Positions 5,441 through 45,738 of a stretch of DNA of 64,000 bases are shown here, piece after piece. Below the pieces are notes generated by a model. That model did no database searches and was not told the origin of the DNA. It saw nothing but the letters and a program-made list of their open reading frames with translations. The stretch lies in assembly GCA_964016885.1 (NCBI GenBank), contig OZ024740.1, positions 206,212,001-206,276,000 on the forward strand, given 5' to 3'. Numbering within the stretch: the first letter of the stretch is position 1; the number at the start of each line of letters is the position of its first letter. This DNA is from Eledone cirrhosa. Its lineage: Eukaryota. The position numbers and the translations under genes are program-made.

Positions 5441-6031
5441 ATGACTGTTTCATTTGGTGTATCTCGGAGATTGTACAACAAAGTACTATCTGGTGTGCAA
5501 GTATTGTTTTCACGGAAATATCTTCTTCTCACCAATACAGCAATCAGTATAACATCTGCAGCTTGTGGAGATTTTGTTCAACAATCCTATGAAATTTCAA
5601 TGCAACGACAACAAACTTGGAACAACAATCGAACTTTACATATCAGTATTACTGGTTTAATATTGGGACCTCCTAGCCATTTTTGGTATCACCTGGTAGA
5701 TTATCTTATACCAGGGTCCTCACTCCGTGTAGTTGCTAAAAAACTAATATTTGATCAAACAATAGGTACACCAATAGGAATTTTTCTGTTTTTAACTTCA
5801 CTCGGAATTCTAGAAAATTCTTCATTTGAAAAAATATTAACAGAATATAAAACCTGTGGAAAAACTTTGCTACTTTCTGAATGGCTAATTTGGACTCCTG
5901 TACAAGTGATAAATTTTGCTTTTGTACCACTTCAGTTCCGTGTTTTGTTTGATAACTCAGTATCATTTGGATTTGATATTTATTATTCTTATATTAAATA
6001 TAGAAAGGATAAAATTTCTGACAAAAGTTAA
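5441..6031 (+). CDS. MPV17L2: Mpv17/PMP22 family protein, MPV17L2-like, 196 aa, single coding exon
   Basis: LLLTNT, GDFVQQSYE, GPPSHFWY, KKLIFDQ, QVINFAFVPLQFRV and YYSYIKY match the Mpv17L2 pattern; splice acceptor tttccag at 5431 just before the ATG. Confidence 0.85.
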   Translation: MTVSFGVSRRLYNKVLSGVQVLFSRKYLLLTNTAISITSAACGDFVQQSYEISMQRQQTWNNNRTLHISITGLILGPPSHFWYHLVDYLIPGSSLRVVAKKLIFDQTIGTPIGIFLFLTSLGILENSSFEKILTEYKTCGKTLLLSEWLIWTPVQVINFAFVPLQFRVLFDNSVSFGFDIYYSYIKYRKDKISDKS

Positions 6032-6200
6032 TAATAAAATGAAATTTGATGAAAAAAGTGCCTTTCCTTTGAGATATAATATTTGGATATTTATTATTCT
6101 TATATTAAATATAGAAAGGATAAAATTTCTGACAAAAGTTAATAATAAAATGAAATTTGATGAAAAAAGTGCCTTTCCTTTGAGTTACAATATTTGGATA
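5975..6200 (+). repeat. 111-bp tandem duplication spanning the MPV17L2 stop codon
   Basis: gatatttattattcttat... begins at 5975 and again at 6086. Confidence 0.9.
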
Positions 6201-9443: not shown

Positions 9444-11310
9444 TCTATAATCCATGCTGCTGGAATTGGCGACCTGACGAAAGGAATATTGTAAATACAA
9501 AGATGGTAAATAGATCGAGGGACCTTCCCTCACGTCTATGTCGACAAGATAATCCGAGGATATTATCACTTTACCACACTGTCAACTAACGACCTTCATT
9601 CATCTACCCTGCTAAACTATAAATGTAACAATAGGGTGACTTTTATAAGTTCAAATAGTTTTGAAAAATTCTGTAACATTTGAACCAGCCATTTATACCA
9701 ACATTAAGGTAGTTTTCAAAATAACAAAAATCTCGTAAAAATACAATAGTAATGTAAATGCTAAAGGGTTGCTTTCTGTGTTCAAACATTACTTTCACCA
9801 TCACAACTATTACATGTTTTCTCATACAACAGAGTTTCATGTATTGTGTTCATTTGGAAACAATCGCTGGACAAATTGTATGGGCAGATCCCGAGTAAGA
9901 TGGTTAGATAACATCCATGAGCTTGGCGATCTAGCCAGATCAATTGGAGACAGTTGTTTCTGGCAGCAGTGTTTGAGGGCTCTGTTCTCACAAATAAGTG
10001 GGCAAAGTGTCTATTTAGGTCCAGCATACAGAGATCAGTTTTCCCTATCTTCCTGCCACATTACATCTGTACCAGTGCACATCCAGCAAAGCATACTCGT
10101 TTCATTTCTCTCCAGCTTTCAATACCCATGTCTTGCTAATATGCAACATTGCACTATGTACACTCACATACATTTTACCTTTTGTTGTCAGTAGAGATAA
10201 TAGCACCCTGAACTTAACGTCTAGGTTTTGTTCACAGATTCAGTTAGGGACCTAATTCCTCAATGGCCTGGAGTAGGGGGCCAAGCCTTGAAGAACACCT
10301 ATCTGCACACAAGCCATTTATCTACATCTAAAGACCACCTAATTATAGAGCATGGTACCATGTTAAGTGCATTCTCCAGATCAAATGCTATGTAGTCTCT
10401 TATTTCACTGGAAATATTACATCAGAAAGACCCAGACTGAACATATCACCTAAGCAAACCTTCTTCCCAATTAGTTGCACTAATGCTATGATACTTCAAT
10501 ATCTTGATCCATCAATTTGATACTTAGGAATAACCAAATATCTAGTTATATATACTGGACGTATGTATAAACACATAAATCTGAACAGGCATGTTATTGA
10601 GAAAAAAAATTGCAAATAGCATTGTTATATTATATGGAGAAAAATAATACAATATACAGCCACCTGATTCTCCCCATCTCTAATACCCTTATATATCCAA
10701 CTTGACTAACCATATTATTTCATCAAATACCAGACCCTGGGCAACTTTTTATTTTAACAAATGGATGCCAATACGACCAGTAGAATGAATAAGTACTGAC
10801 AATTCCTCTCACTATCTTTGGTTATTTGTTCTGTCATACATAAAGAGTATACCTATTTGAAGAAACTTTTATTGCCAGCAGCAATGGCCCTCTCAAAATT
10901 ATCCTAACTTACCTAGTTTTGGAGCACCCACCACCACAACTAAAAGTTATCAACTACTCCAGTGCATCTATCTACCTTACATTAAGCCTGTCCATCAACC
11001 TACACTAATTCCTATTACACATTGGATATCAAGTTTACACAAGGTACTTTGGCATTTCTAAGGGCCCCAGACAACAGTCTTCAGAATATCAATCATAAAT
11101 ACCTCTTATAATCCAGAAAATCAAAACACTAAATTCCTTGAAGTCATTACAAGCTCCCAACTTGAAGACACGGACCTCAAAGAATGTCTACACCTAGATT
11201 TTCTTTAAAACACCAGAATAAAAAGTGAAAGCAAAATGAAGCATCTACTCTCTATAACCTAAACGAAATAACACTATTACAGCCTTTGTCACCCCTGAAA
11301 CACATTTAAA

Positions 11311-11483
11311 CCCTTTAGCATTTAAGCCAGTCACATCTAGCCAACATTTTCTCACCTGTCTCTGTTCAAACCAGCTGATCATACTGATGCTTAGGTATCA
11401 AAATCTCATAGATTCAATATTATGTGAAGTAAAGGTTTTTACTACAAAAATACAATAGTAAATATAATGTAAATGCTAAAGAG
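11311..11483. mobile_element. piggyBac-type MITE (about 200 bp family)
   Basis: ccctttagcatttaa...aatgtaaatgctaaagag; same family as 26041, 35702, 54378, 57211. Confidence 0.75.
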
Positions 11484-11949
11484 TTAAAAAAAAAAAGCTA
11501 TCAGAGTGAATTGTAGCAACGATAATTCAACTACAAGTGAAGAACCAACTGAATCTTCACTGGTCTAACCCATAACATCCTGTAATGACCTAACCAAAAA
11601 TATTTAAAAAAAAGGGTTGTTAATTCAAATTTTAATTTTTATAATTATTTCTACTTTTGGCACAAGGCCAGCAATTAAACAGTACATTACTGGTACTTTA
11701 TTTTATCAACCCCGTAAGAATGAAAGGCAAGGGCCATAACTATGTGTCAAAGCATGGCGTTCGACCCTCTACCGATACTGCCAATCCACCACCCCTTAAC
11801 GTTAGTGCTCTGGGTGAGCTCTTATAATGCAGTTAATTGTGATGTCTTGTATTTTTAAGAATATCTTGTTAATTGCACTACAGGATATTAAGAGTTATAT
11901 AGCTTTTGTGGAGGAAAAAAAAATACACAAAAACAATTTCAGAGGAGAA

Positions 11950-11955
11950 TTTATT
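11950..11955 (-). terminator. RPS6 polyadenylation signal AATAAA
   Basis: About 27 nt after the TAG at 11982, followed by a U/GU-rich downstream element. Confidence 0.75.
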
Positions 11956-11981
11956 TAGAAATATAACATTGAAGTAATATA

Positions 11982-14900
11982 CTACTTCTGTTTCTTACCA
12001 GCAGATTTAGGAGTGCCAGATGCAGACTGAGCTGGTTTTGGAGACTGAGCCTGCTTTGTAGCTGGCTTAGGTGATTTAGCAGCTGGCTGTGTCTGCTTTG
12101 CAGGTTGTGCTGGTTTCGGTGATTTGGCAGCTGACTGGGCCTGTGCAGCAGGCTGTGCTGGTTTCGGTGACTTGGCAGCTGGTTGAGCCTGTTTCGGCGG
12201 CTGGGCCTGTTTGGGTGCCTTCTCAGATTTTGGAGTCTGGGCCTGTTTGGGAGCTTTCTCAGTTTTCGGAGTCTGAGCTTGTTTGGGTGCCTTCTCAGTT
12301 TTTGGAGCCTGAGCTTGTTTGGGCGCCTTCTCAGTTTTTGGAGTCTGAGCTTGTTTAGGCACCTTCTCAGTTTTAGGAGCCTGAGCTTGTTTAGGCGCTT
12401 TCTCAGATTTTGGAGCCTGCGCCTGTTTGGGAGTTTGACTCTGCTTAGGAGTCTGAGCCTGTTTGGGTGCCTTTTCCGTTTTAGTTGCCTGAGCCTGTTT
12501 TGGTGCTTTATCCGTTTTAGTAGCTTGAGCCTGCTTTGCAGGTTGAGCTTGCTTTGCAGGTTGAGCCTGCTTTTGTGGTTGACCTTGCTTTGCGGGCTGA
12601 GCCTGTTTCTGTGGTTGACTTTGCTTTGCAGGTTGAGCCTGCTTTTGTGGCTGGCCTTGCTTTGCAGGTTGAGCCTGCTTTTGTGGCTGGCCCTGTTTAG
12701 CAGGCTGAGCCTGTTTTTGTGCTTGACCTTGTTTAGCAGGTTGAGCCTGTTTTGCTGGTTGTTTAGCTGCCTGCTGTGTCTGCTTCGTAGCCTTAATTGG
12801 TTGTACCTGTGGGGTTCCCTTGGCAGGCTTAGAGGGCTGTGCCTGCTTAGCAGGTTTAGCTTGCTGTTGCTTAGCAGACTGAGTCTGTTTAGCTGGTTGA
12901 GCAGCCTTACCAGGTTGGGACACCTTTGCAGCCTTTCCAGGTTGAGACACTTTTGCAGCCTTTCCTTGTGGAGTTACTTTTGCAGCCTTTCCTTGTGGAG
13001 TTACTTTTGCAGCCTTTCCTTGTGGGGCTGCTTTTACAGTCTTTCCTTGTGGGGCTGCTTTTACAGTTTTTCCTTGTGGGGCTGCTTTTACAGTCTTTCC
13101 TTGTGGGGCTGCTTTTACAGTCTTTCCTTGTGGGGCTGCTTTTACAGTCTTTCCTTGTGGGGCTGCTTTGCCCTGTGGGGCTACTTTTGCTGCCTTGCCT
13201 GGTGGTGTAACTTTTGCTGCCTTGCCTAGTGGTGTAACTTTTGATGCCTTGCCTAGTGGTGTAACCTTTGCTGCCTTGCCTGGTTGAGCTGGCTTTGCAG
13301 CCTTAGTTGGCTGAGCTCCCTTTACCGGTTTTGTTGGCTTTGCAGCTTTGGCTGATGGCTGAGCTCCTTTGGCTGGCTGAGCGCCCTTTGGTGCTTTGGC
13401 AGCCTGCGTTGGCTTGGCTTTCTGAGCTTTAATAACCTTTTCAGTCTTACCAGCCTGTGTGGGTTTAGCTTTCTGAGCTGTGATCTTAGCTCCCACTTTA
13501 GCTGCCTTGCCAATAACCTTTGGTGGTTTCGTTGCTTTAGTTGGCTGAGCCACCTTAGCCTTGATTGGTTTAGCAGCACCCTTAGCAGTTACTTTTGGAG
13601 CTTCCTTGCCAGGCTTGGCTTTCTTAGCTGCCACTGCTGCAACTTCCTGGGTAGGCTTAGTTCTCTTAGTTGGCTGAGCTGGTTTTGCCATGCCCTTAGC
13701 AGCTTTAGTCAGCTTGGCTGCAGCCTTGACGGATGCTTTAACAGGCTTAGCTGCACCCTTAACAACCCCCTTAGCCCCTTTAACTGGCTTTCCTGCTCCT
13801 GCTCCCTTGCCTGGCTTTGCACCTTTGGCGCCCTTAGCTGGCTTGGAGACCTGTGGGGGCTTAGAAACCTTGGCGATCTTAGCAGGAGTATGAAGGACAG
13901 ATTTCTGACCAGCACCTTTTCCTGCATCCGCTGGGCTTGGCCGCTTCTTAGATTGAGGTTGTTGCTTCTTCTGAATACTAGCAACCGTAGCAGCCACTTT
14001 AGCAGCATCCTTAGCAAGCGATTCACTCCTACTTTTAGAAATTGATGATTGTTTACGTTCACGGCGCCTCTCCTTATGTTCTTTCATTCTTAAAGCAAGA
14101 AGTTTAGCATAATCTGCAGCTTCTTCACGCTTTCTGGCAAATCTCAATGCCTTCATACTTCGAAGATGTCTTCTCCTCTGCAACACCAATGGCGTCACCA
14201 ATCGTTGAATCTTCGGCGCCTTAGAGAGTGCGCTCTTACCTGATGGTAGATAGATTAAAAAAAAAAAAAAAAAAAAAAAAAGGAAAAGTTAGCACAAGCT
14301 CCAATTTATGAAAACAGGGTGAAAAAAAATTACATTGAAAGGCAGCTTACAACAATCCGAATGCAATAAGATATTTAACCCTTTAGTGTTCAAACCGCCT
14401 GAAAACACCCACACTAAAAAAATTGTTCTAAAAGTAAACAAACCATCATCAAAATCTCGTCAATTTGAGACTGCTGCGAGATTAGGCCCTTACCACAAAA
14501 ATTAACACTTAATATAGTGAAACAACTTAAAACAAGTGTTTTTTTAACTTTGAAAGTGAAACAAATTTTTTTTTGTATCAACATGGCTTATGAAAATAGC
14601 GATACTGACTTTGAAGGTTTTACACACGACGACATTCAGAATAAACAAGAAACAAACGATAATATTAGTGATTTATCTTCAAATGAATGTGATGTTTATA
14701 TTTCTGAAATTTCATCCGACGATGATTGTTTTGAAAGTGAAAACGAAGGAGGTCTCCAGGCCGCCATTGAAAAATACCACACTAATATATGTTCCCGATT
14801 TTATTCAAATTACTGGTCCACAACATAAATTAGCTCCCGATGCTAAAGCACTGGATATTTCTTTTGTTTTTACCACAAACTTTCTTCGAAGTTGTGGCAG

Positions 14901-17900
14901 AAGAGATTAATTAATATGCGCAACAGCAGATTTCAAATCAAGGAAAACCCGATCTGTTTGGCGAGCGACAGATGCTGCGGAAATGCAAGCATTTTTTACC
15001 ATAAATATTATGTTCGGTATAAAACAATTTCCAAGACTGTGGAATTACTGGAACACTGATATAAGGTTTAGTGATTCTTATATATCAAGTATTATGCCAA
15101 AAACAACGTATTTAAAATTAAACCAGTATTTGCACCTGGTTGATACTTCAAATGCCCCTATTAATGAATTTTATCTGCCCATAAAAGTCAAATTTGACCA
15201 AAAAAAAAAAAATCAGGTAAAATTATATAATTGTAAATTATTGATATTTAAACATCTGACAAAATTTCAAGCCTGCACATAGAAAATTACAAACAAATAA
15301 AATTGATAACTCTCTTGAGTATGATTAACACAAAATAATGCGAACAGATAAGCATGACGTTTGAAAATTAATTGTTTCTACTATTGGCACAAGGCTAGCA
15401 ATTACCCAGTACATTAAAATTAATGCAAATGCTAAAGGGTTAAGAAAATACTCACGTTTGCTGCCTTCCTTCAGAGGAACCGGTCTACGTACAACATATC
15501 TCCGTACATCATCTTCTTTGGAAAGATTGAACAATTTCCTAATTTTACCAGCTCTCTTGGGACCAAGACGACGTGGGATAGTAATATCAGTAAGACCAGG
15601 AATGTCCTGCTCACCTAAATAGTACAAAAAAAAAAAAAAAAAAAAAAAGTATTTTTTTTTCACAAATCCAATTACTTGTCCAGACAAGAAAAATAAACTG
15701 ACAGTACACATACCTTTCTTAATAATAATCAAGCTCAAAACACTCAAATTGGCATCAACAATACAGCCACGCACAGATTTCCTGCGCCTCTCACCCTCCC
15801 GACGTGGGCGATAACAGGAATGCCCCTTAGAAAGCAAAAGGCGGACACGTCCAGCTGTCAAGATACCTTGCTTCATGGGAAAGCCTTGTTTGTCGTTTCC
15901 ACCCGTAATTCGGAAAACATAACCCTGTATGCAAATAGACAAAAAATATATTTCAATGGTCATCCCATCAAAAATAAAAATTTCAAGAAAAATGGAATAA
16001 CTGGCTCAGTGGCTAATTAGTTTCATTGGCCACAGTAATTAGGCAGAAAACTCTCAATCTGATGTAGAACATATTCTAAAGTAAATATATTCCAAACATA
16101 ACAAGAAACTAAAGTAAATTGATTTTGGTAGCTACCTGAAAATTATGTACTAGAAAGCTCAAAATATATTTTCAAGGTATATATATATGAGGTCATATTG
16201 TAGGTTTGCTTCATTAATGAAAAGAGAGAAGAAAAAAATAGCATAGAATGACCAAAACTGCATGTAGCAAGCCTGTATAAAACAAGAATATACACTCCTT
16301 GTTTTTATAGAATTGCATAATTACTATACCCCATATTTCATTACAACAGTAATTAAGTTTACTGTAGTGGTAAGCATGATGGGGTTGCCCTATCAATCAA
16401 ATGTAAATGAAACTGTGCTAACCTTAGAGCGTCTGCACAAACATGCAGCCCTTTACAAGCTCACCTGTGGTCTGCACAAAGATTTTTTACAGCGCGTCTT
16501 ATCTTTGTAATATAAAATGAAAAAAAAAAAAATAGTTGTTGATGTGAGCAATTAGTTGTGTGTGGCCCTCAGTTTGACATGCCTGACCTAGAGTATACTG
16601 ATGAAATATCTTTGTCCTAGACTCAGATGCAGCTACCAAAAAGCTCGTAACTAATCAAAATCTGCTACAATTCCAGTCACATTACAAAAATGACCATAAG
16701 GCAATTTGAGATTCGCATTTGATGCAAAAAAGGAGGACCGAAGATTCCAATAGGTTTGATAATACAACTAGATAGCCAAGACCTCACGTTTCTGCCCATA
16801 ATTCTTTAGCAATAAGGGTATAAAATACTCAGAAAGGTAGATGCTGAACAGTGTGATGAACTAACAATTATACAGTACTCTCTTGGCTCTAAACCTGAAT
16901 ACTCCAAGCCTTGAGGATTACTGAAACAATATAACAGTATTACAATAAAATCTCTCTCCTCTCTCTCTATATATATGCACACAACTCTAAAGCAATGTAA
17001 ATACATTAAGGATGGCATAGGACATATGAATCGAAATTTACACTCATTTTCTGCAGGTTTAGCCAGTCTACTACAATGTTGCATCAGAAGTGTCTTGGAT
17101 GTTTCAATGATAGAGACACAATTAATATTGTAAAAAGCAACATAAAAGGAAGTATCCTGCTGAAGAATATGTATGAGTTGAACCCACATTATGAATGTGA
17201 GACCAACACCCTAACCACTAGGCAGTACACATTGACTACATAATAGCAACTTAATTCAATACCAGACTGGTCTTGGTTCTATTATACTAAGTCAGGGGTT
17301 GGCGGGCCACTTTTGAACATTGGAACAACTATTAGGGCCATTAATATTTATTAAGCACTATTCCAAAGATACACAACTTCTTGCCATAACATGGAACTGG
17401 GTAATTATAACACACATAACCCTATCAGTGAAGCCCTTTAGTCAACTAACAGAAAATTGTATTACGATTACAAAAAAATTCTAAATAAACCTACAAGGTA
17501 AAAATTAAAAACGGTCATCGCGGGCTACTGTGACCTGCAGCACGCTCCTGTACTAAGTTGTTTATATTTATCTAAAAACACTATCATAAATTTTATATAA
17601 GAACCTGTAAGATATTCAAAACTCTAGTCATATTACACCAACCCCCAATTTTAATTATTTAAAAAGTACAGGCAGTGTCTTTCATTTGAAATATGATCGA
17701 GTTAATCTCAAATTCTGTTTAGTCAATTTCTGCAGGGACAGCTAATCGACAAATCAATTTACAATGGAAAAGAAAATTTGTAAAAATCTTTTAAAACGGT
17801 GTCATAAGCCACTAGAAGTAGAATCTGCCAAATAAACTTATGTACAGACTTTTCAACTACAGTACACTGCAATTTCCATAGTACTATTAATATCTATGAC

Positions 17901-20900
17901 CAACTGACAGGAATATATTAATCTTCAATATGCACCTCTCGTGCATTACCTGAAAAGATTACTATCACCAGTTTCATGGGTATATCTACAGATGCAAAAA
18001 CTTTAGCAAGGCTATCATTTTTCAGTTATGGGATAGTCACGTATAAGTCACATCCCTTGTTTTACATGCAAAATTTACAGTATGCCATATATTTTTGAGT
18101 TGAGGATTTGCAGGTCCTCTAAGTCCCACACTGGTTTTTCTCATATTTACATGGAAGAATGACCAATCTATACACAATTATAGATGATATTCCATAGCAT
18201 ACCGGAAGCCTCCACTTTGGGAATTCTTCAAGCACAACACACCCAATGTTTTCCCATATTGGTAAAAGGTTTCACTAGATCTTATTGACAGAAAGGTTCA
18301 ATGTTATTTGAATATCAAAATGTTTCTGAGGCTGTGAATAGTTTTAGTAGGTAATTATGTTTAGGTGATACTAAGTGCATTTTCAAATACCATCCAAATA
18401 CTTTTGGTAGTATTAATCTAGTCATAACATACTTTAATGTGGTCAACTTAGATTGTGGCCAAACTAAGACACCACCTTTATTTTAGTTTATTCCTTAGAT
18501 ATTGTGTTGTAGAAAATACAATTATCTTCAGCAAAAAGTATCCCCCAACCCCACTGTCACCATTATTATTATTGGCATTCTCCATTTTAAATTCTTCTTT
18601 CACTTATCTTTACAAACCCCCTGCTTTGGCAATTCTTCAAGCACTTGTTCCCCATATATGTAAATATAAAGTTTTACTAGATGGCATGAAATAGTTATAA
18701 AAGAGATGAATCAACTAACCCAGCCTGTCAACTGAATGTATAATTGCAGTAAGATAATACAAAATCCAAACCATTCCAGACAACCATTTCAAGTGGTTTA
18801 CTCTGCTAAACATGCCTAACAATGAAACATCAGTATTGTAATATAACCCTTTGTACCTTAGACTATCAACCATCTGATTTGAGACGGTGAGATACAAGAA
18901 TCTAGTTATTCTTAACAGTTTGATTGACATGTAGGGACCTCTTCTGGTATACTAAACTGGTGTTTGATACAACTACCATCTAGAAGAGATATGGACAATG
19001 GCTAATGCAACCCCATGTAATTCTGAAGAGAACAAAACAGTCATGGTTGAAACTCCTTTGATCATATCAATGAGGACTGTGAGGACTAAACAACCATTAA
19101 ATTGTATCATGAGACATTCAATATAAAGTGATATTCATATTTAAATGTAAATACTGACAAGAGTTCATATCAAAATGGTTAGAACGTACCTGCATTAATC
19201 TAAACTAAGAATTTCATTAAACTTAATCAAAAATAAAACCGATATGTAACCCAATCTATTGATGATAGGGTTACATTAAACTAAACGTGTTAGGATTGTT
19301 ACTTTATTAGATTTTTAGTATCCATCCAATCTTCTGCTCCCAGTAATACGATAAAGCCGTTTATATTCATCCACCATATAAAAATATTTAAATTGTATAT
19401 CAAACACTATCTCAATAATATCAGTTATAAAACTAAATCTCTTCAAATTCATCATTATCAAACTAATAACTAATATGGAAAAAGGATTAACAGCAACATA
19501 ATATACCTGAAGCAAATAACTGATGCTCACTTCACATAAGTCTTAAAATGTTACCTGGGACAGGATTCACAAAAGTCAAACCTTTGTGAGTTTTTAACAG
19601 GTTAGTTTTTGTCCCCTAAATTATATTAGACTACAATAAAAAATGTCATTGTAGTTAAAAATTATTAGGGTTGGTAAATTTATACTTCTCATTTTTCCCA
19701 TTTGCACACTAGTTGTTTGTTTGTATTATGGATAACAGCCATTTCCAATGTCTTACTCTACTTCTTGATATACAGATGGTTGACACCCCCACCCCCCAGC
19801 TTGTTTTAGTCGTCTGTTCTATAAGCAGACTAGCCCCTACCCGAGCAACAAACAGATCGTTAGATCAGACCAAGGAAACAATATTTCCATTGGTTTGCTG
19901 ATACTAAACTGACAGCCATACATGCAATCAGAAGGAAAAACAAAGTATTTTGTTCAAGAACAAAACGTACTGCTTAGTCCAGGAATCTGACAACACTGGG
20001 TCTAATACTCTAGCCACTAGGCCGGCCACTTAAAGAAATTTGGATTTAAATGTGAAGGCACACATCACATTTTTTCTTAACCACAAATATCTCGAAATTA
20101 AACTAAGCCTATCAAAATTCAGTTAGTCACAGTATTAAATTCATGCACAATTAATGTTAGAAATCTAAATGTTTAAGAGTTCATCTATTACAGCTTGCAC
20201 ATCACACATGCAACAATGGTGTAACTACAGCACTTAATAGATGTTCTACCAGCTTAAGTAATGTTACCTGGAACAGGATTCACAAAAGTCAAACATTTGT
20301 GAGTTTTTAACAGGTTAGTTTTTGTCCCCTAAATTATATTGGACTACAATAAAAATGTCATTGTAGTTACAAATTATTAGGGTTGGTAAATTTATACCTC
20401 TCATTTTCCCATTGCACACTAGGTGTGTGTGTACCTATAATGGAGTTCTATAGTGGATAACAGCCAATTCAAATATCTTAGATATACAGATAGGTTTAAT
20501 GCTTACGCCCCCCCCCCCCCCCCAACCCGAGATGTTTTAACCGCCTGTCCTTTAAGCAGACTAATCCATACCTGAGCAATAAACAGTACTAGGATTACTC
20601 ATGATAATAGTGAAGACAACTTCCCAATATGGTGGTTAAAAGAAAAACAGATTTAATAACTATTCATATTTACACACATCAAAAGACCGATCAACAGATA
20701 GGACTATGAAAACAATCTTTCCACTGGTCTGCTAATACTAAGCTGAGTCTCACAGCGTGGTCGACGGAAAAACTTGAAATAAAGAGTATCAATCAGTCGA
20801 ATATTCAGAATATCTAAATTCTGAGATATATTTTCAACGATGCAATATTTAATGTACCAAAGTTTTGACTACACTCACAGGTATTTACCTTGAGTCGCAA

Positions 20901-22817
20901 CAAAACACAAAATAAGGTATTTTGCTCAAGAACAAGATGTGCCGCTCGGTCCAGGAATCGAACTAACAACACCGAGTCTAATACTCGGACTACTAGGCCA
21001 CTTAGAGGAATTTGGATTTAAAATGTATACTTATTACCAAATATCTCGAAATAAACCGAAGCCTATCAAAATTCAGTTACGGTCACAGTATTAAATTGGA
21101 AAGAGGCTATGTAGCCGGTCCCGGTAAAAGTGAGACACCATGAGTTACAGACTTTTACGGTCTGAGTTAAGACAATTTGAAATCCTTTCCACTATTAATT
21201 GTTAAAAACAAGTTAGAATCATTTAGTTGCCCATTCGTATCGTACGTTACGCTTTAGTTACATGCACATACATAAATAGAAATATAAAATAATTATTACA
21301 TACACACACATCTATGAATGATTGAGGACTATAGCGATGTGTTGCGTCCCTTAAGGGATCACCGGCTACATAGCCTATTCGATTAAATTCATGCACAATG
21401 TTTGGAGTTCATTTATTACAGCTTGCACATGACACATGCAACAATGGTGTAACAACAGCACTTAATAGATGTTCTACCAGCTTAAGTAATGTTACCTGGG
21501 ACAGGATTCACAAAAGTCAAACATTTGTGAGTTTTTAACAGGTTAGTTTTTGTCCCCTAAATTATATTGGACTACAATAAAAATGCCATTGTAGTTACAA
21601 ATTATTAGGGTTTATCTAAACAAAAATTAAAAGGATCACTTTCCTATTACACACATGCAATAAATCTAACATTTTCTAAACTAGATCAATCTTTCCTTCA
21701 CGGGATTATGTACTTTAAATATGTATAGCCCATGCTAGCAGGAAAATAAAAGCGGACACGTAAAGCCCGTGATTCTGATCCTTTTGAAAACAATTTTTGT
21801 TTCATGTCTTATGAAAATTAGGTTGGTGGAGACTGTCCACAAAATAGAGGTATGGGTTCCATGATCGTACCCCACCTCAATCACGTTTTGCTTTCCCTTA
21901 ATCGCAATAGGGTAATATATGTGTTTCTTTATTTATTTCAGGCATTGTGGAAATGTTACAGAAAATTATACATATGTATTAATACATTACCTTCCACTCA
22001 TCACCAAGACTTTCAGCAGTTATTTCCGCAGAGATACGTTTATCATAAAATGGACGTAATTTTCTTTCGGAATCGATTTCTATTAATTTTTGGCAGCCAG
22101 TGGCTGGATACGAGATATTCAGCTGTAAAAACAATGTATACATTGGAAATTAGAGATTGATTAAATCCCAATAAAGAATATAATTAAACATAAAATTACT
22201 TAAAACGTTGACTCATGTAATTATGAAAAGTGGACAAAAGACATTATCATCACAAGTGCGCGATGACATCGAACTCTCAAAGCAGAACAAGTCGTTGTGA
22301 TAATTTTAATATTGAATACATTTCTTAAAAGGTTTAGGTATGGTTTCTACAAATAAAAATGTGATGATTGGTTAAACTGGAATACAGTAAGTCTAGAAAT
22401 AAACAGCGTCAAACCATCGGTTATAAGTCGGCATTAAAAATAGCGATAATTTCTAAATATATACCATAATAATGTGGGCTAAAAATCATCTTGCAAAATA
22501 ATTTATTAAATACATTTTCATAAAACGTGAGAAAACTGCAACATTTTTTTTTTTTACAAAGAATAGATTTAGGTAGCTGGAGTCAGAAATTGTAAAATTA
22601 ATTTCGACCTCCATGTGTTGTTACATGGCTGTAGTATGTTTAACGTGGACTTCAACAACTTTATCTGTAGTCATCTGTATTATTTAAAGACATTTTACGA
22701 CAAATAGTTTTCTTTATCAAGTTAAATAAAACATCTAAAATACAAATATAATAATATTTTGGTAAAATTGAAATCATAAGATGATTAAAAATTAACATTT
22801 TATTTACATACCTTCAT
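11982..22817 (-). CDS. RPS6: 40S ribosomal protein S6 (eS6) with about 675-aa K/A/P/Q-rich C-terminal extension; 921 aa predicted
   Basis: Exons 22817-22812 (MK), 22122-21991 ([13 protein letters not shown]...GDEWK), 15924-15714 ([20 protein letters not shown]...), 15614-15456 (...[18 protein letters not shown]...), 14239-11982 ([11 protein letters not shown]...[12 protein letters not shown] then tail); all introns GT-AG and phase-compatible; 2766 nt. Confidence 0.95.
14379..15439 (+). mobile_element. Internally deleted piggyBac transposon in RPS6 intron 4
   Basis: TTAA flanks at 14375 and 15440, ccctttag/ctaaaggg TIRs, acidic N-terminus (DTDFEGF...SSDDD) and MQAFF...[14 protein letters not shown]...LNQYLHL transposase fragments. 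Confidence 0.85.
17293..17550. mobile_element. hAT-type MITE
   Basis: CAGG...CCTG termini with perfect 8-bp TSD TACTAAGT at 17285 and 17551. Confidence 0.75.
19546..19672 (-). ncRNA. Box H/ACA snoRNA candidate, copy 1 (RPS6 intron 2, sense)
   Basis: Hairpin (CCCUAA/UUAGGG, CUACAAU/AUUGUAG), H box ACAAAA, hairpin (ACCUG/CAGGU, UCACAAA/UUUGUGA), ACA plus 3 nt; about 127 nt. Confidence 0.8.
20259..20384 (-). ncRNA. Box H/ACA snoRNA candidate, copy 2
   Basis: Near-identical to copy 1; same boxes and stems. Confidence 0.8.
21098..21381. mobile_element. Merlin-like MITE, 284 bp
   Basis: TIR core aggctatgtagccggt/accggctacatagcct, 8-bp TSD ATTAAATT; empty site preserved in the paralogous unit near 20134. 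Confidence 0.7.
21487..21612 (-). ncRNA. Box H/ACA snoRNA candidate, copy 3
   Basis: Near-identical to copies 1 and 2. Confidence 0.8.
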
Positions 22818-22845
22818 AGCTGTTCCTTACAACGGAACTATCACG

Positions 22846-22857
22846 CGAGAAAGAGGC
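22846..22857 (-). promoter_or_regulatory. TCT initiator / 5' TOP tract of RPS6
   Basis: CCTCTTTCTC about 35 nt upstream of the ATG; typical ribosomal-protein gene start. Confidence 0.8.
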
Positions 22858-23526
22858 TCTCCACGCACACGTTGATCTGATTTATAATTCCGCACTGTCG
22901 TTACGTATTTAAAGTTTCACATTTTTTAGAATTATTTACAAAATTCATTATTATCTTAAGAAATTGATAATAAAATAATTTTAATAATTAAGCAATTAAT
23001 AATTCATAAATAAACAAGATGATAAAATACGAATATATCATGACAAACTTTGTAAAAAGTACGCAGAACAATTTCAAATTTCTCACTGGATTAATCGTAA
23101 GTAAATATTTTATTCCAGCAATAAATCGCTAAAAAAATCTTTTTTATAGTTTTATAAAATACTGAAATTTTCATTTGCATTACTTGCTGATGATTTGTTT
23201 TATTTTTCAACAGTTGTTATGTAAATAGTATAAACGAAAAATAGAAATGACGAAACCAAAATAAATAAACGGTTTTTGTTGTCATATGGAAATGTGATTA
23301 GAAGTGTAATCAATCGGATTTCTTTAGAAATTAAACATGTGAGATGTCAAGGATACACTTTTTTTCATTACATGAAACTATTACACAGAAAACAGAAGTT
23401 AGTGGTTGACAGTTTTGAATGGAAATATAACTATTATTAGCAGTATTGATGTTTTACTATTTACAAACTATATTTTTGGTTTTAAAGATTTAATAGCCAG
23501 TTTTGTTTATTTCTGTAGACTATGGA

Positions 23527-26500
23527 ATGGATGGATTATCAGAAGATTACAATTGCTTTCAACCCAGCCACTTCGTCATCTTAGATTCTCAAAATTCTTG
23601 CCCTAAATCATTGAATGAAACTTCTTTTTTGAAATCTCTTCCTGCACTTCAGACACCAAAAGCTCAAGTGAGAAAATTCCGCAGTTTTTCATCCTGATAT
23701 TTCCTTTCTATGTTCTTGACCATACAGGGTTTTGTGAAGAATTAGATTGTCTAGATTCTTCTGTGTTAACATCACTGACAACTAAAATTTAGAACGTTTT
23801 CAGGGTAGACACAAAATTATTACCAAGACCTGCCATGAAGAAAGTTATATCTACTTAAAATGCCCCCTTTCATTTCTTTCAAAACAGATGAAATAGTTGT
23901 TTTTCATTCATATAAAAAGCAATTTATTGTTAATTTTTTATGGGGAGAATATCAGTTGACATGTAACTGTGCATAGGAAGTCTTTCTTGATAATCCCGGA
24001 AAGATTTTTCATTGTACACATAAAGCAACTTTTCAAGATTTCAGTTCTATTTAGGCTCTACTCAGATTGTGGAACTCATGCTTGGTAGCCTTTCTTATTA
24101 GTTATATAACCATCTGATAAAGTAGTTCCCTTTGTGATCATATTGATCTGGGGTTGATCCTACTTTGTGGCACCTTGAGCAACAGGTTGACTGAAACTTT
24201 GTGAGAGAAATTGGGTTCACAAAAACTGACCAGTCAGATGAACTGTACTTTTTCATAGTTGGTACTTACTCCATCACTTGATTTCATGCCACCATTTGCC
24301 CTTGGATGTCTTTAGCAGAGTCAACTCTATTGCTGACATTAGGGCCATGTCTCTGTTTTGAAGATAACTCTGTGTTGTTTTTTACTGTAGAAACCAATAA
24401 ATCATCCTCTCCGCTCTTTCCTCCACCAGTCTTCAAGACCCTGTAAAGATCATAGACACTGCTTTATCTCCTGTAACTAAGCCATAAAGATAATATAACA
24501 TGTAATTTTCATCTACAGTGGATAAGAACTTACAAAAGGAGCCGTTCTGCCAATAACTCTTCAGCATTAACGAGTGGTACCAAATCAAGTTGTCCTAAGA
24601 TGTACCAGTAATATATTAGATCATTTCTTCTTGTTATATGACTTTAGACTGCAATACCCCTTCATGGGTTGCAACCATTTCTGTGTTGTTTAAAAGTTCA
24701 CTTCTCAACAACAACATAGTTTTTGGTTCAATCCCACTACATGAAACCTTGGGAAAATGTCTTTTATCAAAGTTTTGGGTCAATCAAAACCCTTTGAGTG
24801 AAATTTGAGTGGTGGAAACTGTGTAGAAGCCATTCAGAAGTAAGCATTTCTGTTGTCCATTTTAACACTACAATGTAACCCTTGGGTACTTTTAGCAGAG
24901 TCTGCTCTGTTGCAAGCATCTTGGCCAGGCATCCAGTCTAAGTGAGAGATACCCTGAAAATAATCATGAGCACTCTTTCTCCTCCATGAATTCAGTGATA
25001 TTAGACTTTGTTAACTCTTAACATCTTGTAATAATTTAGCAGAAAATATCTAAGAACAGGTTTTGCTAATTCAAAAGTTTCTAACATTTTTTCTAGCTGT
25101 CTTTATATTGTGAAAATTTGCAGTATAAGAGTAAAGATATCAATTGTTTTGTATTTTTCAAGAATGTCTTGCTAATGTAGTTCTATGTGGTACAGGATGT
25201 TAAAAATAAAAGCCAATAATTATCATTGTTTTCTGGGAGTGTGTGTTGGGGGTTGCTATTGAAATTTCTGTGTCTGTTGTTACTAACAGCAGATGAAATG
25301 TCATATGTATGAGCAAGGAATACTTCATACATTAAGTTATTAAATTTATTTCATAACAGGAAACATGCAAGTTATCATGAAGCAAGATATTATCTCCACC
25401 AAATATTTGAGTTTCAATCATTTCAAATAGCCTTCTTCTTATTCGTCCACTTATTCCTGAGAAAGTCATGGGGGCAGAGTCCTCAAACATTCCTTCCAGC
25501 AGGTCCTGTCAGAAGCAACCATCTCCAACTGATCCAGCTGGATCCACAAGCGAGACCAGTCAAGCTCATGGATATTATCCAACCATGGTACTCAGGGTTT
25601 ACCCTTGGGTCTTCTGCCAGTTGGTTTTGCCCATAAAATCTGTCCAGCAATTCTTTCCTGAGACATTCTAACCACATGCCAATTGTATCGGAGCTGTATC
25701 TCTCTATTCGGAGAAGTAGTGGCTCTCTGCATTTTGTACCTAAGGATTTACCCCTGTGATAATTTTGCTACACATTCTTTTTCTTTTTTCTTCTTCTCTA
25801 TCTCTAGCTTTTTAGCATCTTTTAAATACTTTTTGGTTTTAATGGCTTTATAAATGCATTAAAGTTTATAAGCTCTGTTGGACAATTTCACCATTTTTAT
25901 AGAATAAGCAGCTTTTGCAAGTTTTTGACTTGGATTGTTGGACAGGGAATTTCATATTCCACTTTCTGGTTATATATCTCCTCAATGTTTGAATAAGTAA
26001 CTCCACTCACATCAGTTAATTTACCTTTTCATCTTCTACTTTAACCCTTTAACATTTACATTACTCTATATATACTATTGTATTTTCACAGTAAATGCTT
26101 TACCTCACATAATATTGAATCTATGAGATTTTGATATTATTTATTTTGAGAACAATACCTTAACATCAGTATTAGTGCCGGTTACAGCCTGTTTGAACAG
26201 AAAGAGGTGAGAGAATTAAGGCTGGTTTAAATGCTAAAGGGTTAATCTATGTTATTCCAACTTGATTGATTTTGTTTTCCTATTTTAGAGTGAACACGTG
26301 GGCGTCAGTCTTTCCCCAAATCAAAAGTCTGCAGTTTCAGAGGCTTATCAATGTGATATTGACCTTAGTAAGTGTGACTGTATCATCTTCTATCATCATT
26401 AACATTTAATTATGTAAAGTTTTAGTACTTATTAGATATAGATTAAAAGCATGTTTTAATATAATATGGTTAGAGTGTTAATGTAATATATCTTATTATA

Positions 26501-35500: not shown

Positions 35501-37807
35501 TCATCAGGGAAGAATTCTTTGGAACAAGAGAAGATATTGAAAATAATGTATATAGACCATGTTGCTGCAACTCTTTTCAGGGTAAATAACTACAACCATT
35601 GATTTACTTATTAATTAATTAAGGTTGTATTTTCTCTAATAAATATTTGATGAATCAATTAACTTCATGGCAGAGTTGAATTTGTTTTTATTGCTGTAGA
35701 GTTAACCCTTTAGCATTTAAACCAGCCATATCTGGCCAAAATTCTCTCACCTCTTTCTTTTCAAACTGGCTGTAACCATCCACTCGTACTGATGTTAAGG
35801 TATTGTTCTCAAAATAAATAATATCAAAGCCTCATAGATTCGATATGTGAGATAATTATGCAAGATAAAGCCTTTACTGTGAAAATATAATAGTAAATAT
35901 AGAGTAATGTAAATGCTAAAGGGTTAATAGAACCAAATATTTTGGCTGGAAGTTGAGTTTAAAATTGTTATTTTACTTCTCAATATTTGATAATTTGTTG
36001 CTCATTTTTGTGATTGACAGTTACATTGAAGCATCACCTGAACATCAGTCATTCCCAATAATTATTCCTGATTCTCCAACCATGGAAAATTCTGACCAAG
36101 GTACATATTTTAATTTATTATCTGTTTTAAAAGGTCATTGGTTTGATTCCCATACCAGACAGAATGTTGTGTCAATAAGTAAGGCACTTCATTTCATGTT
36201 ACAGCAGCAGCAGGGGTTACGCCTATGACAGACTGGTGTCCCATTCAGTGGAGGAATTAGGATTGTACACTCAGCCAATACCAATTAAACTGAGATATTC
36301 TCCAGCTAGATGAACCTCTGGGCTTGAGATAGACTTTAACTTACAAAGATTTTTACTACAGGCACAATTTTAATTTATAATAATGTGATATACTGAACAC
36401 TTTATTTATTTATAAAAACAAGCATTTTATTTCATTTAATTAAGCATGAATAACATTGCAAATGAGGAAGGGATAAAGAGGGATAAAGAGAGGAAAGGAC
36501 TATAAAAGCCATAAATGAGAGGAAAAGGAAGGGAAAAGCAATGACTCTAGGGCCATCTATTATATAAATGACAATTTCTGTCTGTCTGTGTACTGTGTAT
36601 AACCAGTTGGTGCCTACACCAGTGATCCGATCCTGATGAAACTTTACACACATGTTAAGCTAATATTCAGAAACAGGACTGGCTAATTGTATTTCAATAA
36701 AAACCAATATGGCACATCTTTACAATGGAGGAGGAAAGAGAAGATGTTTCAGTGAGAGAGGGGGAAGAGGAGATACTACTACTGTATGTTAAACCCTCCC
36801 TCCCACTACTCAGTCCTCCAAAACGAGGCAACAACTTATTAGAAATATACATAAAAAAATTTCAAACAAAGCAGACAACAATCTAATTTTTGTTGATGAC
36901 CTAACAGATGTCTCTGTGTGTGTATATATATATATATATGTATATGTGTATATGTATATATATATACAGGGTGGAGACGATATTTGTTCACAAGATTACT
37001 GTCTAGGAAAAAATAACAGTTTTATTTTTTAAGATATATTTATCCAACTTGGGTCAGTTTGTCTTCATGACTTGTTCTTTCGATCTCACTCGATAAAACC
37101 GCCATTGGCTTTGATGACGGCCTCAAGGCGGCCTCGGAACCGGCTACAGGCCTTCGTCACTGTCCCACAACTTAGGTCCCTAAAGGCACTTGTGATCCTG
37201 GCCTTCAGATCGTCTATCATATTGCAGCTAGATATGTTGGTGTCTCGTTCCACTGCGCCCCACACAAAGAAGTCGAGGGGGTTGCAGTCAGGCGAGCTGG
37301 GAGGCCAGATGTCAGGTGAAGTGTTGTCAATGAAGTTCTCTGGCAGGGCGCTGAGTCTTGCTGCCACATGTACGGCCTACCTGCAGCTACCTGGCTCAGA
37401 AAGTGGATGTAGCCATCGGTGTTCAGCTTGAGGCCCTCAGGGAAGAAGTGAGGTGGCATGACGTCACCTTGACTGTTGACGACACCTAAGACCAATGTTG
37501 TCGGTGGAAACTTTGTCTGCATGACTCTGGGCACGTATTTGGATGAGACAGTGAGCCACCTGTTGTTCTGGTAGTTGATCTTCTGGTCTTATTTGTCCTC
37601 CCGGTGCGGATTCCAAGAAGAACTCCATGTCTCTTCGACAAATTTGGAGGTTCAAAATTATTCATAATCAATTATTCTGAAAATAAATAATGGAAATATA
37701 GTCACTGTTTTTATGAAGACAAGAGTGACAACGGAAGTAAAAATAATTTGCATAAAATTAGCAGTTGAAAATTGCGAACAAATATCGTCCGCACCCTGTA
37801 TATATAT

Positions 37808-37840
<33 letters not shown>

Positions 37841-40800
37841 GTTTAACGTCCATCTTCCACGCTTGCATGGGTTTGGACGGGAGTTTTCCCACTTGAGGCA
37901 AGATTGGTTGTCCTGCTTGTATAGGACTGTCTGGCGGGTTTTCTACGGCTGGATGCCCTTCCTAACACCAACCACGTTTACAGTGTGGACTGGGAGGTTT
38001 TTACTGTGTTACCTACACGGCCACATTACAGCGTGGACTGTGTTTTTTTGTCGTGACACCTACACGACCTCATTTGTTTCGGACTGGATGTGGTGGTACC
38101 AACATAACTTCACATTGAAGGGGGTGATGTGGATGGCGTGGGGGTAGTGGGACAGGGGTGTATTTTTGTTAGAGGTGCCTACTGACTGTAGGTTTCGCTT
38201 TGTACTTAGGCAAGGCGGGTCTTCTGTATTACTGTGTAGCGCCAAAGATCTCGGTCCAGTGACATTGTCTTGGAGAGGTGTAAGTGTGTGAGGTAGGAAT
38301 TTATCAAGTCGTCCCAGGTTTTTCTGGGTCTGCCTACTCCGTGGCTACCATCTATTTTTATCGCCCTGCACTTTTTTATACAGCTGTCGTCTTTCATGGG
38401 CATCACGTGACCGTACCAACGTAGTCTTCTCTCAAGTAAACAACATCTGATCCCTCTTATTCCTAATTTCTCCCTTAGTTCGTTTATGCTTTGCCGTTCA
38501 CGTATATTACTATTACACATCCAGCGGAGCATGCAAGCTTCATTCCTCTCCAGTTTGCGTATATCCTCTGCACACAATGCCCAGGTCTCACTGCCATGTA
38601 ACATTGCTGTTCGTATGCAGGCATCATACAGCCTGCCTTTCATTTTTAGAGAGAACCCTTTAGTGGCCAATAGTGGTATAAGCTCTCTGAACTTTTTCCA
38701 TCCCGTTCTGACTCTAGCTACTGTACTTTCAGAGCACCCTCCCCCACTGCTGATTTTGTCACCCAGGTAACGGAAGGTGTCCACTATTTCTATAGAACCA
38801 TCTGTGCAATGGAATGAGCTAGTATTCTGTGGGCACTTGCTGCTACTTATTGCACCAGAGCACCGGCCACATATAAAATCTATATTCTTAGTTAGCTTAC
38901 CTGTGATTCCACTACATATTTTATGCACCCATACTTTGCATTTTGGACATAAAATGGAGTTTCTGCCTACTCCTTTCCTACACACTGAGCATGGCCATTT
39001 CCCAGATGGGACCGGTGCCCTATTTTCCTTCCTACAAACTAGAACTTTAGTCTTAGACAAGTTAACTTTAAGGCCTTTCGATTCTAGGCCATGCTTCCAT
39101 GTTTGGAATTTCTTCTCTAGTTCAGCCATTGATTCAGCTATGAGCATTAGATCATCTACGTATAGGAGTTCCCATGGGCAGCCGGTCTTAAACTCCTCTG
39201 TTATAGCCTGAAGGGCAATAATAAATAGTAGGGGCTAAGAACGGAGCCCTGATGAACAACTTTTACGCTAAACTCTTCACTATATTCGTTGTTAATTCTA
39301 ACCTTGCTGACTGTTTCTTTATACATGGCTTGTATAGCTCTCACAAGCTATTCATCAACACCTAGTTTTCTAAGAGCCCACCAGATAATGGAGCGGGGGA
39401 CTCTGTCAAAGGCTTTCTCCAATTTAACAAAAGCTAAATATAGGGGTTTACTTTTAGCTAGGTACTTCTCCTGTAGTTGTCGTACAATGAAAAGAGCGTC
39501 TGTGGTACTTTTACCTGACACAAACCCGAACTGCATTTCATCTAGATCAATTCGCTCTCTGATTAGTTGCGCTATTACTTTTTCTGTGACCTTCATGACC
39601 TGGTCGATTAATTTAATGCCTCTATAGTTAGCCCTATCTAGGGCATCTCCTTTACCCTTGTAGCAGTTAATGATGATGCTGCTACGCCAGTCCTTCGGAA
39701 TGGCCCCATTCTGTATGACTTGGTTTACTATCCGGGTGACCATAGTGTGTCCCACCGTTCCAGATGCTTTCAGCATTTCAGCAACTATTTCCGAAGGCCC
39801 AGCCGCCTTACCCGTCTTCATATCTTTGATTGCCTTACTACCTTCAACTAGCACTACTGGTCCCTCTATTGAATCAATGTGGGGGAGACTGTCTTTCTCC
39901 CATTTATTCTCCTCATTTAGTAGCCTTTCGTAGTGACACTTCCAAGCTACCTTCTTATCAGCGTCAGTGATGGCAAGTACACCATCATCATTAAGGACAC
40001 ACTTCTCCCCAACAATATCATGGTTTTCCTTGACACATTGCCTAGTAATCCTGAACACCTCACGTTTTTGGTCCTCGCGTTGTAGAACATGCTTGAACTT
40101 TCTTTCCTCTGCTTCCCTTCTTGCGAAGTACACTTGTCTCCTAGCTTCCCTCCTGGCCACTTGATAGTCTTCTCTACTTCCCCCATCCCGCCATACTTTC
40201 CAAGCCTGCTTTTTGGCCTTAATTGACTCCTCCACCTTACTGTTCCACCACCACATTACTCTCCTCCTGCCTATAGGCCTGCTCCAGCCACAGACTTCAT
40301 CTGCCGCCTTCAGCAGGTTAGCTTTCAGGAATTCCCACTGTTCCTCTATATTGTACGACTCTAATTGCTCTTCCTTACTGTCGAAAGCATCAAGTAATAT
40401 GCTTTTAAATTTATTACTGGCTGTGGGGTCCTTTAGCTTCCATATTTTTCTCCTGAGGATAGTCCTCCTCTGTTGTCGAGTACGTCTTGTCCTGACTATG
40501 AGGTCGCTGACTATGAGTCTATGTTGGGAGGTGCATTCTTCATGGGGGGAGGGATTTAGTGTTTACAACAGACACTCTATCACGTCTTCTGGTAAGGATA
40601 TAATCTATCTGACTGGCGTGTTCCCCTGATCTATAGGTGATCCAGTGATTGTCTCGTTTTTTGAAGTTAGTGTTACAGATAGTTAGGTTATTTGCGTCAC
40701 AGAATTCCAGGATTCTGGAGCCTTCCTCATTTCTAGTACCAAACGCATAGCCTCCATGGATTCCGTCATAGCCGTCACAATGTTGTCCAACGTGACCATT

Positions 40801-43800: not shown

Positions 43801-45738
43801 TCCCTTTTCGTTTCTTGACTAATGCCTCTTTCGGCTTCCTTAAAAGATTTGCATAGTAAGCTCCTGTCACAGTTCTTTGACCTTCAAGATAATCTATTAG
43901 TATCACCCCATCTGAATCCCAGAAAATGGTGGCCATCACTTTTTGATCCGACTTTTGAGATTTGAACTTGATTGGTCCCGATGATCCACGTGGAAGCCAC
44001 TGTTTTGACTGCTGTTTGGATTCAGGATCATGCTGGTAGATCCAGGTTTCATCTCCGGTGATGATTCTGGTCAGGAAATGCTCATCAACTTCAATTTTGT
44101 TTAATATCGCCAAAGACAGATCACTTCGAAGAATCAGCTGATCAGGGCGCAACGTTTTTGGGACCCATCGCGCTGAAAGCTTGCTTAGTCCAAAATTATC
44201 GTGCAGAATTGAATTTGCCGAACCATATGAAATGGCTAGGGACTTAGCTAACTGATTAACTGTTATTCTTCGATCTTCCTCAATTAAAGTCTGAGCAGGC
44301 TCAACGTTTTGGTCATTTTTTTGATGTTCCTAGTCTTCCACTGCGATGGTCGTCTTCAAGGTCGTCTCTCCCTTGTTTGAATCGCTGAATCCACTTGTAG
44401 ACAGCAGTTTTCTTTGGAGCAGTAGTACCGTAAACGTTAACTAAAACATCCATCCATAATCTGTGTCCCTTTCCATTTGAGTTTCACCAGAAACTTGATA
44501 TTCGATCTTATCTCAAAATAACTATTTTCCATTGTTCCAAAAAGAAGTTTTTTAAAGAGTGTCAGTACTGTACAATAGTCCATGCATAACTGACTGCAAG
44601 TGACTAATAGCAAGGTAAACACCCAGTGACAATGTTCTGACATGTTTAATATTGTTTTAACCTATTTTTTTCTTACTACGATAAAATTCCGCGAACTTTT
44701 TGATGCCCCCTCGTAGGTTACTTATGTACTCCGGATGGTCATGGGCACTTTCATTTTTCCAGATATTGATTATAGGGCCTCCCGGCAGATAACCCCCGTT
44801 AACCACTTCCTTGGAATCGGCTGAAGCACTGCAGTGCAATGCAACAAAACGTCATAACTTCTGGAGTTCTCAACCGATTTTCACAAAACTTGACACATGG
44901 GCTATGCTTATTCTACAGATGAATGTGAAAGGAACTTAACATTGTAACTTTAACACAGCTACTGAGCAGCCCCAAGCAACGCCGGGCTTTACTGCTATAG
45001 GCGATAAAGTCGTGCAGACAGACAGTCGTGCAGAGAGGTGATATAGGCGATAAAGTTGTGCAGACAGACAGTCGGGCTGATAGACGATGGAGGCATGCAG
45101 ACAAACAGTCGTACACCGAGGTGATATAGCCGATAAAGTTGTGCAGACAGATAGTCAGGCTGATAGACGATGGAGGCATGCAGACAGACAGTCGTGCAGA
45201 GAAGTGATATAGGAGATAAAGTTATGCAGACAGACAGTCATGCAGAGAGGTGATATAGGCGATAAAGTTGTGCAGACAGACAGTCGTTCAGAGAGGTGAT
45301 AGGCGATGAAATTGCATTTTTTTTTTTTCTTCCATGTCCATCCAATTTCTTTGTTTCAAAATAACTGATAGTTTGGTTACGCTGTTTTTTCTAAGACAAG
45401 TGTTGCAGTGTTTACATTTTCGATTTTTGTTAATGGATTACTAGTGCAGTTTTTATCCCCATTCGAGTTATGGTTATGTTTTCTTAACTTCATTAGGCAT
45501 ACTGTTGGTTGAGGGAATATTAATCAAAAGTACGACATGAAAGTCTACACTGTAGACTCTACAGATTTTAAGCCAAGAAAGGAACTTAACATTGTAACTT
45601 TAACACAGCTACTGAGCAGCCCCGAGCAATGCCGGGCTTTACTGCTAGTATGTATATATATATATATATGTATATACATATATATGTATATATATGTGTA
45701 TATATATATATATATGTGTATATATATATATGTATATA

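Follow-up and report, generated by a model that had tools for sequence, protein, structure and literature searches.

The 64,000-nucleotide (nt) window analysed here, from the octopod Eledone cirrhosa (contig OZ024740.1, forward-strand positions 206,212,001 to 206,276,000), carries on its minus strand the gene RPS6 for the ribosomal protein eS6, and its reading frame continues for 675 codons beyond the usual end of the protein. This locus is a working RPS6 gene and the sole one found in the genome. Its long lysine-rich tail is a real, expressed and octopod-conserved extreme of a known type of ribosomal-protein extension, not a new category. The eS6 protein is nearly constant in size and a classic read-out of mTOR/S6K signalling. 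By the usual sizes of small-subunit proteins, a 97-kDa eS6 would be by far the largest of them.

The coding sequence consists of five exons, all of their introns being GT-AG, and its 2,766 nt encode 921 amino acids (aa) and one stop. The product is a 246-aa core of 28.4 kDa, which ends at K246, plus a 675-aa tail of 68.5 kDa, 96.8 kDa in total. The initial annotation of this DNA, made from the letters alone, had estimated about 95 kDa against about 29 kDa and placed a giant tail of about 675 aa at 11982 to 14010. Its length and masses hold, and so does its end (TAG at 11984-11982), but the tail begins at 14009 rather than 14010. Exactly 675 tail codons occupy 14009-11985, wholly within the last exon. 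The TCT/TOP start, the clean splice sites and the AATAAA about 27 nt past the stop were likewise recognised earlier and are all seen in the sequence, as follows.

22849 to 22856, minus strand: CCTCTTTC, pyrimidine start motif of the TCT/5'TOP type, 39 nt ahead of the ATG, read from the sequence; the transcription start is predicted.
22812 to 22817, minus strand: coding exon 1, 2 codons; a GT donor adjoins.
21991 to 22122, minus strand: coding exon 2, eS6 residues 3-46; AG/GT ends, PF01092 match, spliced to exon 3 in sequencing run X4 (described below).
15714 to 15924, minus strand: coding exon 3, eS6 residues 47-116; PF01092 match with an E-value (E) of 7e-33, 70/70 identical to chain HH of Protein Data Bank (PDB) entry 9EHO, in spliced contig 29 of X4.
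15456 to 15614, minus strand: coding exon 4; AG/GT ends, part of spliced contig 29.
11982 to 14239, minus strand: coding exon 5 with core, tail and stop; AG acceptor, in frame to the TAG.
14010 to 14239, minus strand: start of exon 5, encoding the long C-terminal helix of eS6 and the serine cluster, now internal; identical to 9EHO residues 171-246.
11950 to 11955, minus strand: AATAAA polyadenylation signal, then a TG/T-rich stretch, read from the sequence; the cleavage site is predicted.

The start motif follows the common TCT/TOP-type consensus, and the AATAAA, which starts at 11955 and lies 27 nt past the stop, is the single one within 14239-11900. The N-terminal domain scores 113.5 bits with the Pfam family Ribosomal_S6e (PF01092) against a cut-off of 26, with matches in exons 2 and 3. 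The basic C-terminal helix region with the serine cluster matches 43 PDB eS6 sequences. The cluster is intact, having an RxRxxS motif at residues 229-234, which we take to be the S6-kinase site, and more serines up to 243. The open frame of the tail is beyond chance, because none of 1,000 base shuffles stays open and the other five frames carry 8-56 stops.

No second RPS6 locus was found in the 3.0-Gb genome of the species. The exon-3 protein finds one match there (6/6 candidates scored), and the PF01092 profile finds two, both of them exons of the gene described here. The locus had been thought to be the working RPS6, and a short second paralog, sought as the possible alternative copy, turned up in neither the protein nor the profile search of the genome. 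In a search that skips simple repeats, the last-exon DNA matched its own locus only and thus revealed no donor gene of the tail.

Four public sequencing runs (X1-X4) come from one study, which may also be the source of the assembly. Contigs of X1-X3 run through introns, as DNA does. They agree with the window over 13140-14243 and 11770-12577 except for 0-2 differences, which excludes an assembly artefact in these two parts. We took X4 to be RNA-derived from its exact exon joins alone. In its contig 29, exons 2-3-4-5 are spliced together exactly as predicted and the sequence goes on to 13950, 60 nt inside the tail, and other X4 contigs cover 13141-13829, 12687-12968, 12424-12576 and 11988-12392.

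In sum, the X4 pieces listed cover at least 1,589 of the 2,025 tail bases. Their contig depth is 1,947-2,561 in the tail and 1,725 in the spliced contig, compared with 2.5 in the one intronic piece listed. The sole variant listed inside the tail is silent. Thus the expected transcription into the tail is borne out by one spliced contig and separate tail pieces, although contigs cannot show transcript ends or levels.

The tail is made of A (22.8%), K (22.1%), Q (15.6%) and P (13.8%) with 1.5% E. It has 149 Lys, 2 Arg and 13 acidic residues, and zero aromatic residues and zero Cys. The net charge of +138 amounts to 0.20 per residue and is spread evenly (0.16-0.23) over the following five segments.

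13290 to 14009, minus strand: segment I, residues 247-486, K/A/P/G/V-rich, weakly repetitive and best conserved; its first 26 residues are identical in Octopus bimaculoides.
12897 to 13289, minus strand: segment II, residues 487-617, a 9-residue (27-bp) PQGK-type array, the youngest and most uniform; about 81 residues are without a counterpart in 9EHO.
12528 to 12896, minus strand: segment III, residues 618-740, Q-rich (35%), containing a 12-residue (36-bp) array; 20/29 mismatches at codon position 3.
12195 to 12527, minus strand: segment IV, residues 741-851, a 12-residue (36-bp) array with TPK sites; 33/55 mismatches at codon position 3.
11982 to 12194, minus strand: segment V, residues 852-921, 16-residue SPKP repeats, a KKQK end and the stop; the same end in 9EHO.

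The Tandem Repeats Finder periods listed for the tail arrays are 18, 21, 27, 36, 48, 72 and 108, every one a multiple of three. In four arrays defined from the DNA alone, we scored mismatches between bases spaced one period apart. Codon position 3 accounts for 81 of the 144 mismatches (p = 1.4e-8), and the bias is significant in three arrays singly; the 27-bp array alone is without it (18/45, p = 0.21). This excess, already suspected on first inspection of the repeat units, reveals protein-level constraint on the tail.

By the charge-hydropathy boundary, the sole criterion of our disorder call, each of the five segments scores as disordered, which together with the net charge agrees with the long basic disordered region first proposed. 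Its contour length is about 240 nm and its estimated radius of gyration (Rg) about 7.6 nm. The description 'histone-H1-like' fits the tail in composition but not in domain. No Pfam family matches the tail or the last exon at E <= 0.1, no H1 chain is among the four PDB matches at E <= 10, and the second half is Q-rich.

Like the C-terminal domain of linker histone H1, the tail is K/A/P-rich, basic and disordered with S/T-P sites. H1 tails are about 40% lysine, and the octopod tail has 22% lysine with 16% glutamine, is several times longer and lacks a globular domain. It carries no S/TPKK motif, one S/TPxK and 10 S/TPK. Because there is no Pfam match and no S/TPKK, the tail is not a histone H1 and resembles it in make-up only.

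The tail is no oddity of one genome. Chain HH of 9EHO, the eS6 of the O. bimaculoides ribosome (PMC13321053), matches best in the PDB and is an ortholog of 808 aa with a 562-aa tail; the depositors are described there as building the protein sequences from annotations and RNA-seq. Besides exon 3, residues 171-272 are identical, and about 79 of the next 102 (~77%) are so by eye count from the match line. The tail segments are colinear, in the same order down to the same last residues. The gap of 113 residues between the two tails (675 vs 562) lies mainly in the 9-mer and the first 12-mer arrays.

A shorter form exists in a sister lineage. The JGI proteins P0024, P0025 and P0260 have the same junction sequence and K/A tails of 127-128 aa without the Q-rich arrays, and the charge of the P0024-type tail is 0.23 per residue. 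We guess that these three represent a non-octopus cephalopod. A BLASTP comparison between the last exon and P0024 yielded nothing above noise, which compositional adjustment would lead one to expect.

Our tree has 46 chosen rows, namely the window core, 26 named taxa and 19 further tailed proteins, with no mosquito sequence. P0024 and P0025 form the sister group of the window protein (support 100/99) with a core identity of 83.7%. In the 11 named gastropods and bivalves no tail exceeds 8 residues, and named annelid and several arthropod sequences are likewise without one. The simplest history would be that a short tail arose after the lineage had diverged from other molluscs, followed by a four- to five-fold tandem expansion in octopods.

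K/A/P-rich tails of 43-196 aa were found in 31 of 342 proteins with the eS6 C-terminal motif, a set that is a biased sample of search matches, after 23 of 54 tails of at least 30 aa had been dropped for K+A+P below 45%. Their charge is 0.10-0.27 per residue and they are spread over several distinct clades, among them that of the mite Tropilaelaps mercedesae (examples are P0210, P0198, P0247, P0228, P0256, P0227, P0199, P0116, P0087, P0090, P0252, P0002 and P0004). Such tails occur well beyond mosquitoes, and far more often than the cited mosquito papers would imply. The octopod tail is 3.4 times the longest other one retrieved (196 aa). Neither a named cephalopod eS6 nor a K/A/P-tailed eS6 above 451 aa was among the best 23, 120, 120 and 150 matches of the protein searches. 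In the ESM Atlas the top score was 0.81, which we count as no more than a lead.

Nine or more long eS6 entries were rejected as tails, for example P0003, P0005, P0008, P0019-P0023 and P0150. Their additions are non-K/A/P or repeated cores, and they look like fused gene models.

Extensions of H1-like make-up have been published on mosquito eS6 and fly eL22 and uL23 (PMC548281, PMC11764897, PMC3074143, PMC9409236). The mosquito tail likewise follows directly on the serine cluster, is encoded in the last exon and is K/A-rich, and it reportedly remains on the subunits of the ribosome (PMC548281). It is, however, about 100-170 aa and K/A/E-rich, whereas the octopod one is 675 aa and K/A/P/Q-rich with tandem arrays. 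Given the K/A/P tails of 43-196 aa on unrelated eS6, we regard the 675-aa tail as an extreme variant of the mosquito type. The two are most likely convergent, as tail-less molluscs and arthropods separate the lineages in the tree, in keeping with the independent origin that the initial annotation had proposed.

The Drosophila RpL22 and RpL23a also have K/A/P-rich extensions (PMC3074143), the fly eL22 being 299 aa in the PDB. Those are N-terminal, about 170 aa and on the 60S subunit, and the octopus eL22 lacks one.

In the human ribosome, the C-terminus of eS6 is wrapped by expansion segment ES3S, a part of the shoulder, which moves during decoding (PMC10156603). For this reason the 18S rRNA of the same genome was measured. 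The genes measure 2,844-2,878 nt and exceed the eukaryotic model of 1,831 positions by about 1,040 nt (11 of about 2,316 candidates scored). Copies lie on at least four contigs (C2, C4, C12 and C25), for example C25:22125279-22128146 and C12:25167906-25170781.

The insertions are in V2 (about 108 + 58 nt, ~166 in all), V4 (about 535 nt) and V7 (about 250 nt). They are G+C-rich (61-66%) and A-poor, and the region sizes are nearly equal in 4/4 copies checked. V2 and V4 are presumably ES3S and ES6S, so about 700 extra nt would be near the start of the tail. Long 18S genes of cephalopods are known to phylogeneticists.

The 28S rRNA gene is 5,114 nt (L014:91-5204). It carries the exact 8-base H88 break-site sequence (L014 4450-4457) at about position 4,360 of the gene, compared with 4,322 in O. 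bimaculoides, and this site is reported as Incirrata-specific (PMC13321053). The site thus identifies the source of the window as an incirrate octopod. In the spacer 3' of the 28S, evenly spaced pattern matches mark a tandem array with at least 12 copies of an ~88-bp unit (L014:6227-7203).

Among the 9EHO proteins, the lengths of eL22 (136 aa) and eL24 (158 aa) are close to the norm, and uL23 (201 aa) exceeds its vertebrate counterpart by about 45 residues at the N-terminus. Hence, among the four proteins tested, the giant addition is local to eS6. The octopus uL23 is chain X of the entry, and its genomic match is on contig C4:328317695-328317856.

Our preferred reading, to which we give a probability of roughly 0.45, is that the tail is a retained unfolded polycation, the main job of which is binding and screening the enlarged 18S expansion segments. 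The gene is the ordinary single RPS6 of an incirrate octopod, with a last exon lengthened by in-frame tandem duplication, and the 675-residue tail is part of the eS6 that it encodes. The tail would stay on eS6 and stay unfolded, and would bind the enlarged ES3S and ES6S without sequence specificity, screening the RNA charge. As counter-ion or chaperone, it may keep the expansion segments folded and soluble during assembly and translation. Selection would then act to preserve length and a uniform positive charge (about +0.2 per residue) rather than any fold. Binding to rRNA expansion segments had been among the first suggestions for this tail, and the idea now gains a correlate because the much enlarged 18S is at the same corner of the 40S; the binding itself we infer.

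Several points weigh against this reading. The sequence record of 9EHO alone does not place the tail on the particle, and the link between tail and 18S is one co-occurrence. With its +138 charges, the tail can balance just a fifth of the phosphates that the ~700 added nt bring. Another long rRNA is the 28S, yet eL22 and eL24 are without tails. The 113-residue difference in length between two octopods argues for loose constraint. Moreover, the type of run X4 is not on record and it comes from the same study as the DNA runs X1-X3, and no contig among those listed spans the whole tail, with 766 further joints beyond them.

A rather unlikely alternative, still the best of the rivals, is that the retained tail works outward. 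It would be a cationic brush or scaffold for mRNA, for initiation or RNA-binding factors or for neighbouring ribosomes, as in neuronal RNA granules, or it would serve nucleolar import or assembly. Its contour length and Rg extend far past ES3S, its distinct repeat blocks keep their order in two species, and its 18 S/T-P sites offer regulation. Self-condensing proteins usually rely on Tyr/Arg stickers, and these are missing in a tail with no aromatic residue and 2 Arg versus 149 Lys. The mRNA passes the ES6S region, and eS6 is reported to cross-link weakly to mRNA in the mammalian 48S (PMC6887119). The H1-like extensions of fly RpL22 and RpL23a were found as partners of PARP (PMC548281, PMC3074143).

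Another account, which we consider doubtful, makes the tail part of an octopod-specific RNA-protein appendage. A tail of 560-675 residues would have grown together with the ~700 nt of ES3S and ES6S and would set the elongation speed, because ES3S in the decoding shoulder wraps the eS6 C-terminus, with the S6-kinase serines at the base. Octopus ribosomes are described as slower and more accurate than squid ones, about 30% slower in translation, with the slowdown independent of the H88 rRNA break and unexplained (PMC13321053). The appendage, if true, would explain that ~30%.

Similarly doubtful is that the tail is tolerated cargo, a repeat expansion at an exposed C-terminus under selection only against frameshifts, stops and sticky residues. 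K/A/P tails have arisen many times, being scattered on the tree, the array copy number is unequal in the two octopods, the 27-bp array has no third-position bias, and the genome is large and repeat-rich. This would, however, burden a one-per-ribosome protein with 68 kDa extra. It also fits poorly with the silent-change bias in three of the four arrays, and with the identity of residues 247-272 and the ~77% identity of about the next 100 in O. bimaculoides.

Still less probable is cleavage of the tail after synthesis to give a transient assembly chaperone or a separate H1-like chromatin protein. Fusions of ubiquitin with ribosomal proteins set a precedent (PMC548281), and the dibasic pairs at 260 and 267 fall in the stretch most conserved with 9EHO. 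The addition to eS6 is, nevertheless, C-terminal and disordered by score, holds no ubiquitin-like partner domain or other Pfam domain, and has no H1 globular domain, no S/TPKK motif and no recognisable protease module. The mosquito tail is reported as retained (PMC548281). The earlier suggestions of cleavage, chromatin binding and condensation find no support here.

Finally, an artefact or a silent or minor isoform, with most mRNA ending or splicing soon after the core, is highly improbable despite the ATTAAA at 13433, several donor-like sites in the last exon, the lack of a full-length read among the data listed and the many joints beyond them, because X4 contigs 29 and 28 cross the core-tail junction and 13433, respectively, the tail contigs are as deep as the core contig, the locus is single and its tail has an ortholog in a second species; an early mRNA end would also give a non-stop mRNA, as no stop follows K246.

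No paper on a cephalopod eS6 tail was found in the literature searched, which has most subscription journals outside it. Term searches found no mention of an eS6 or RPS6 tail in the main text and supplement of the octopus ribosome paper, figures being outside the search, and none of the 18S size in the supplement (PMC13321053). The octopus tail thus seems public as a sequence record yet unremarked. Purified octopus ribosomes, cryo-EM maps and reconstituted translation exist, so the role of H1-like tails and large expansion segments can be tested directly on an extreme example from nature. Octopus phospho-S6 blots are to be read near or above 97 kDa, not at 29-32 kDa, should the tail be retained.

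Elsewhere in the window, no tRNA gene was found over the 64 kb, and no Rfam family, intronic snoRNA included, within 10,000-24,000. An apparently single-exon gene of the Mpv17/PMP22 family (5441-6031, plus strand, Pfam E 6e-19) is oriented tail to tail with RPS6, and a segment of about 95 bp spanning the stop codon of this gene is duplicated just 3' (~5978-6072 and 6087-6180).

The RPS6 introns are repetitive in places. Intron 4 holds at 14330-15400 a high-copy repeat of very high contig depth with short open frames, which to us resemble remnants of a piggyBac-type transposase. Intron 2 (19590-20460, 21400-21620) has a ~100-150-bp block three times, near 19690, 20380 and 21610. Further away, translations of open reading frames suggest putative broken LINE/RTE-like and Penelope-like retrotransposons and mariner-like transposases at 38206-41079 (minus), 59967-61669 (plus), 46004-47960 (plus), 37033-37588, 43529-44329 and 55812-56553.

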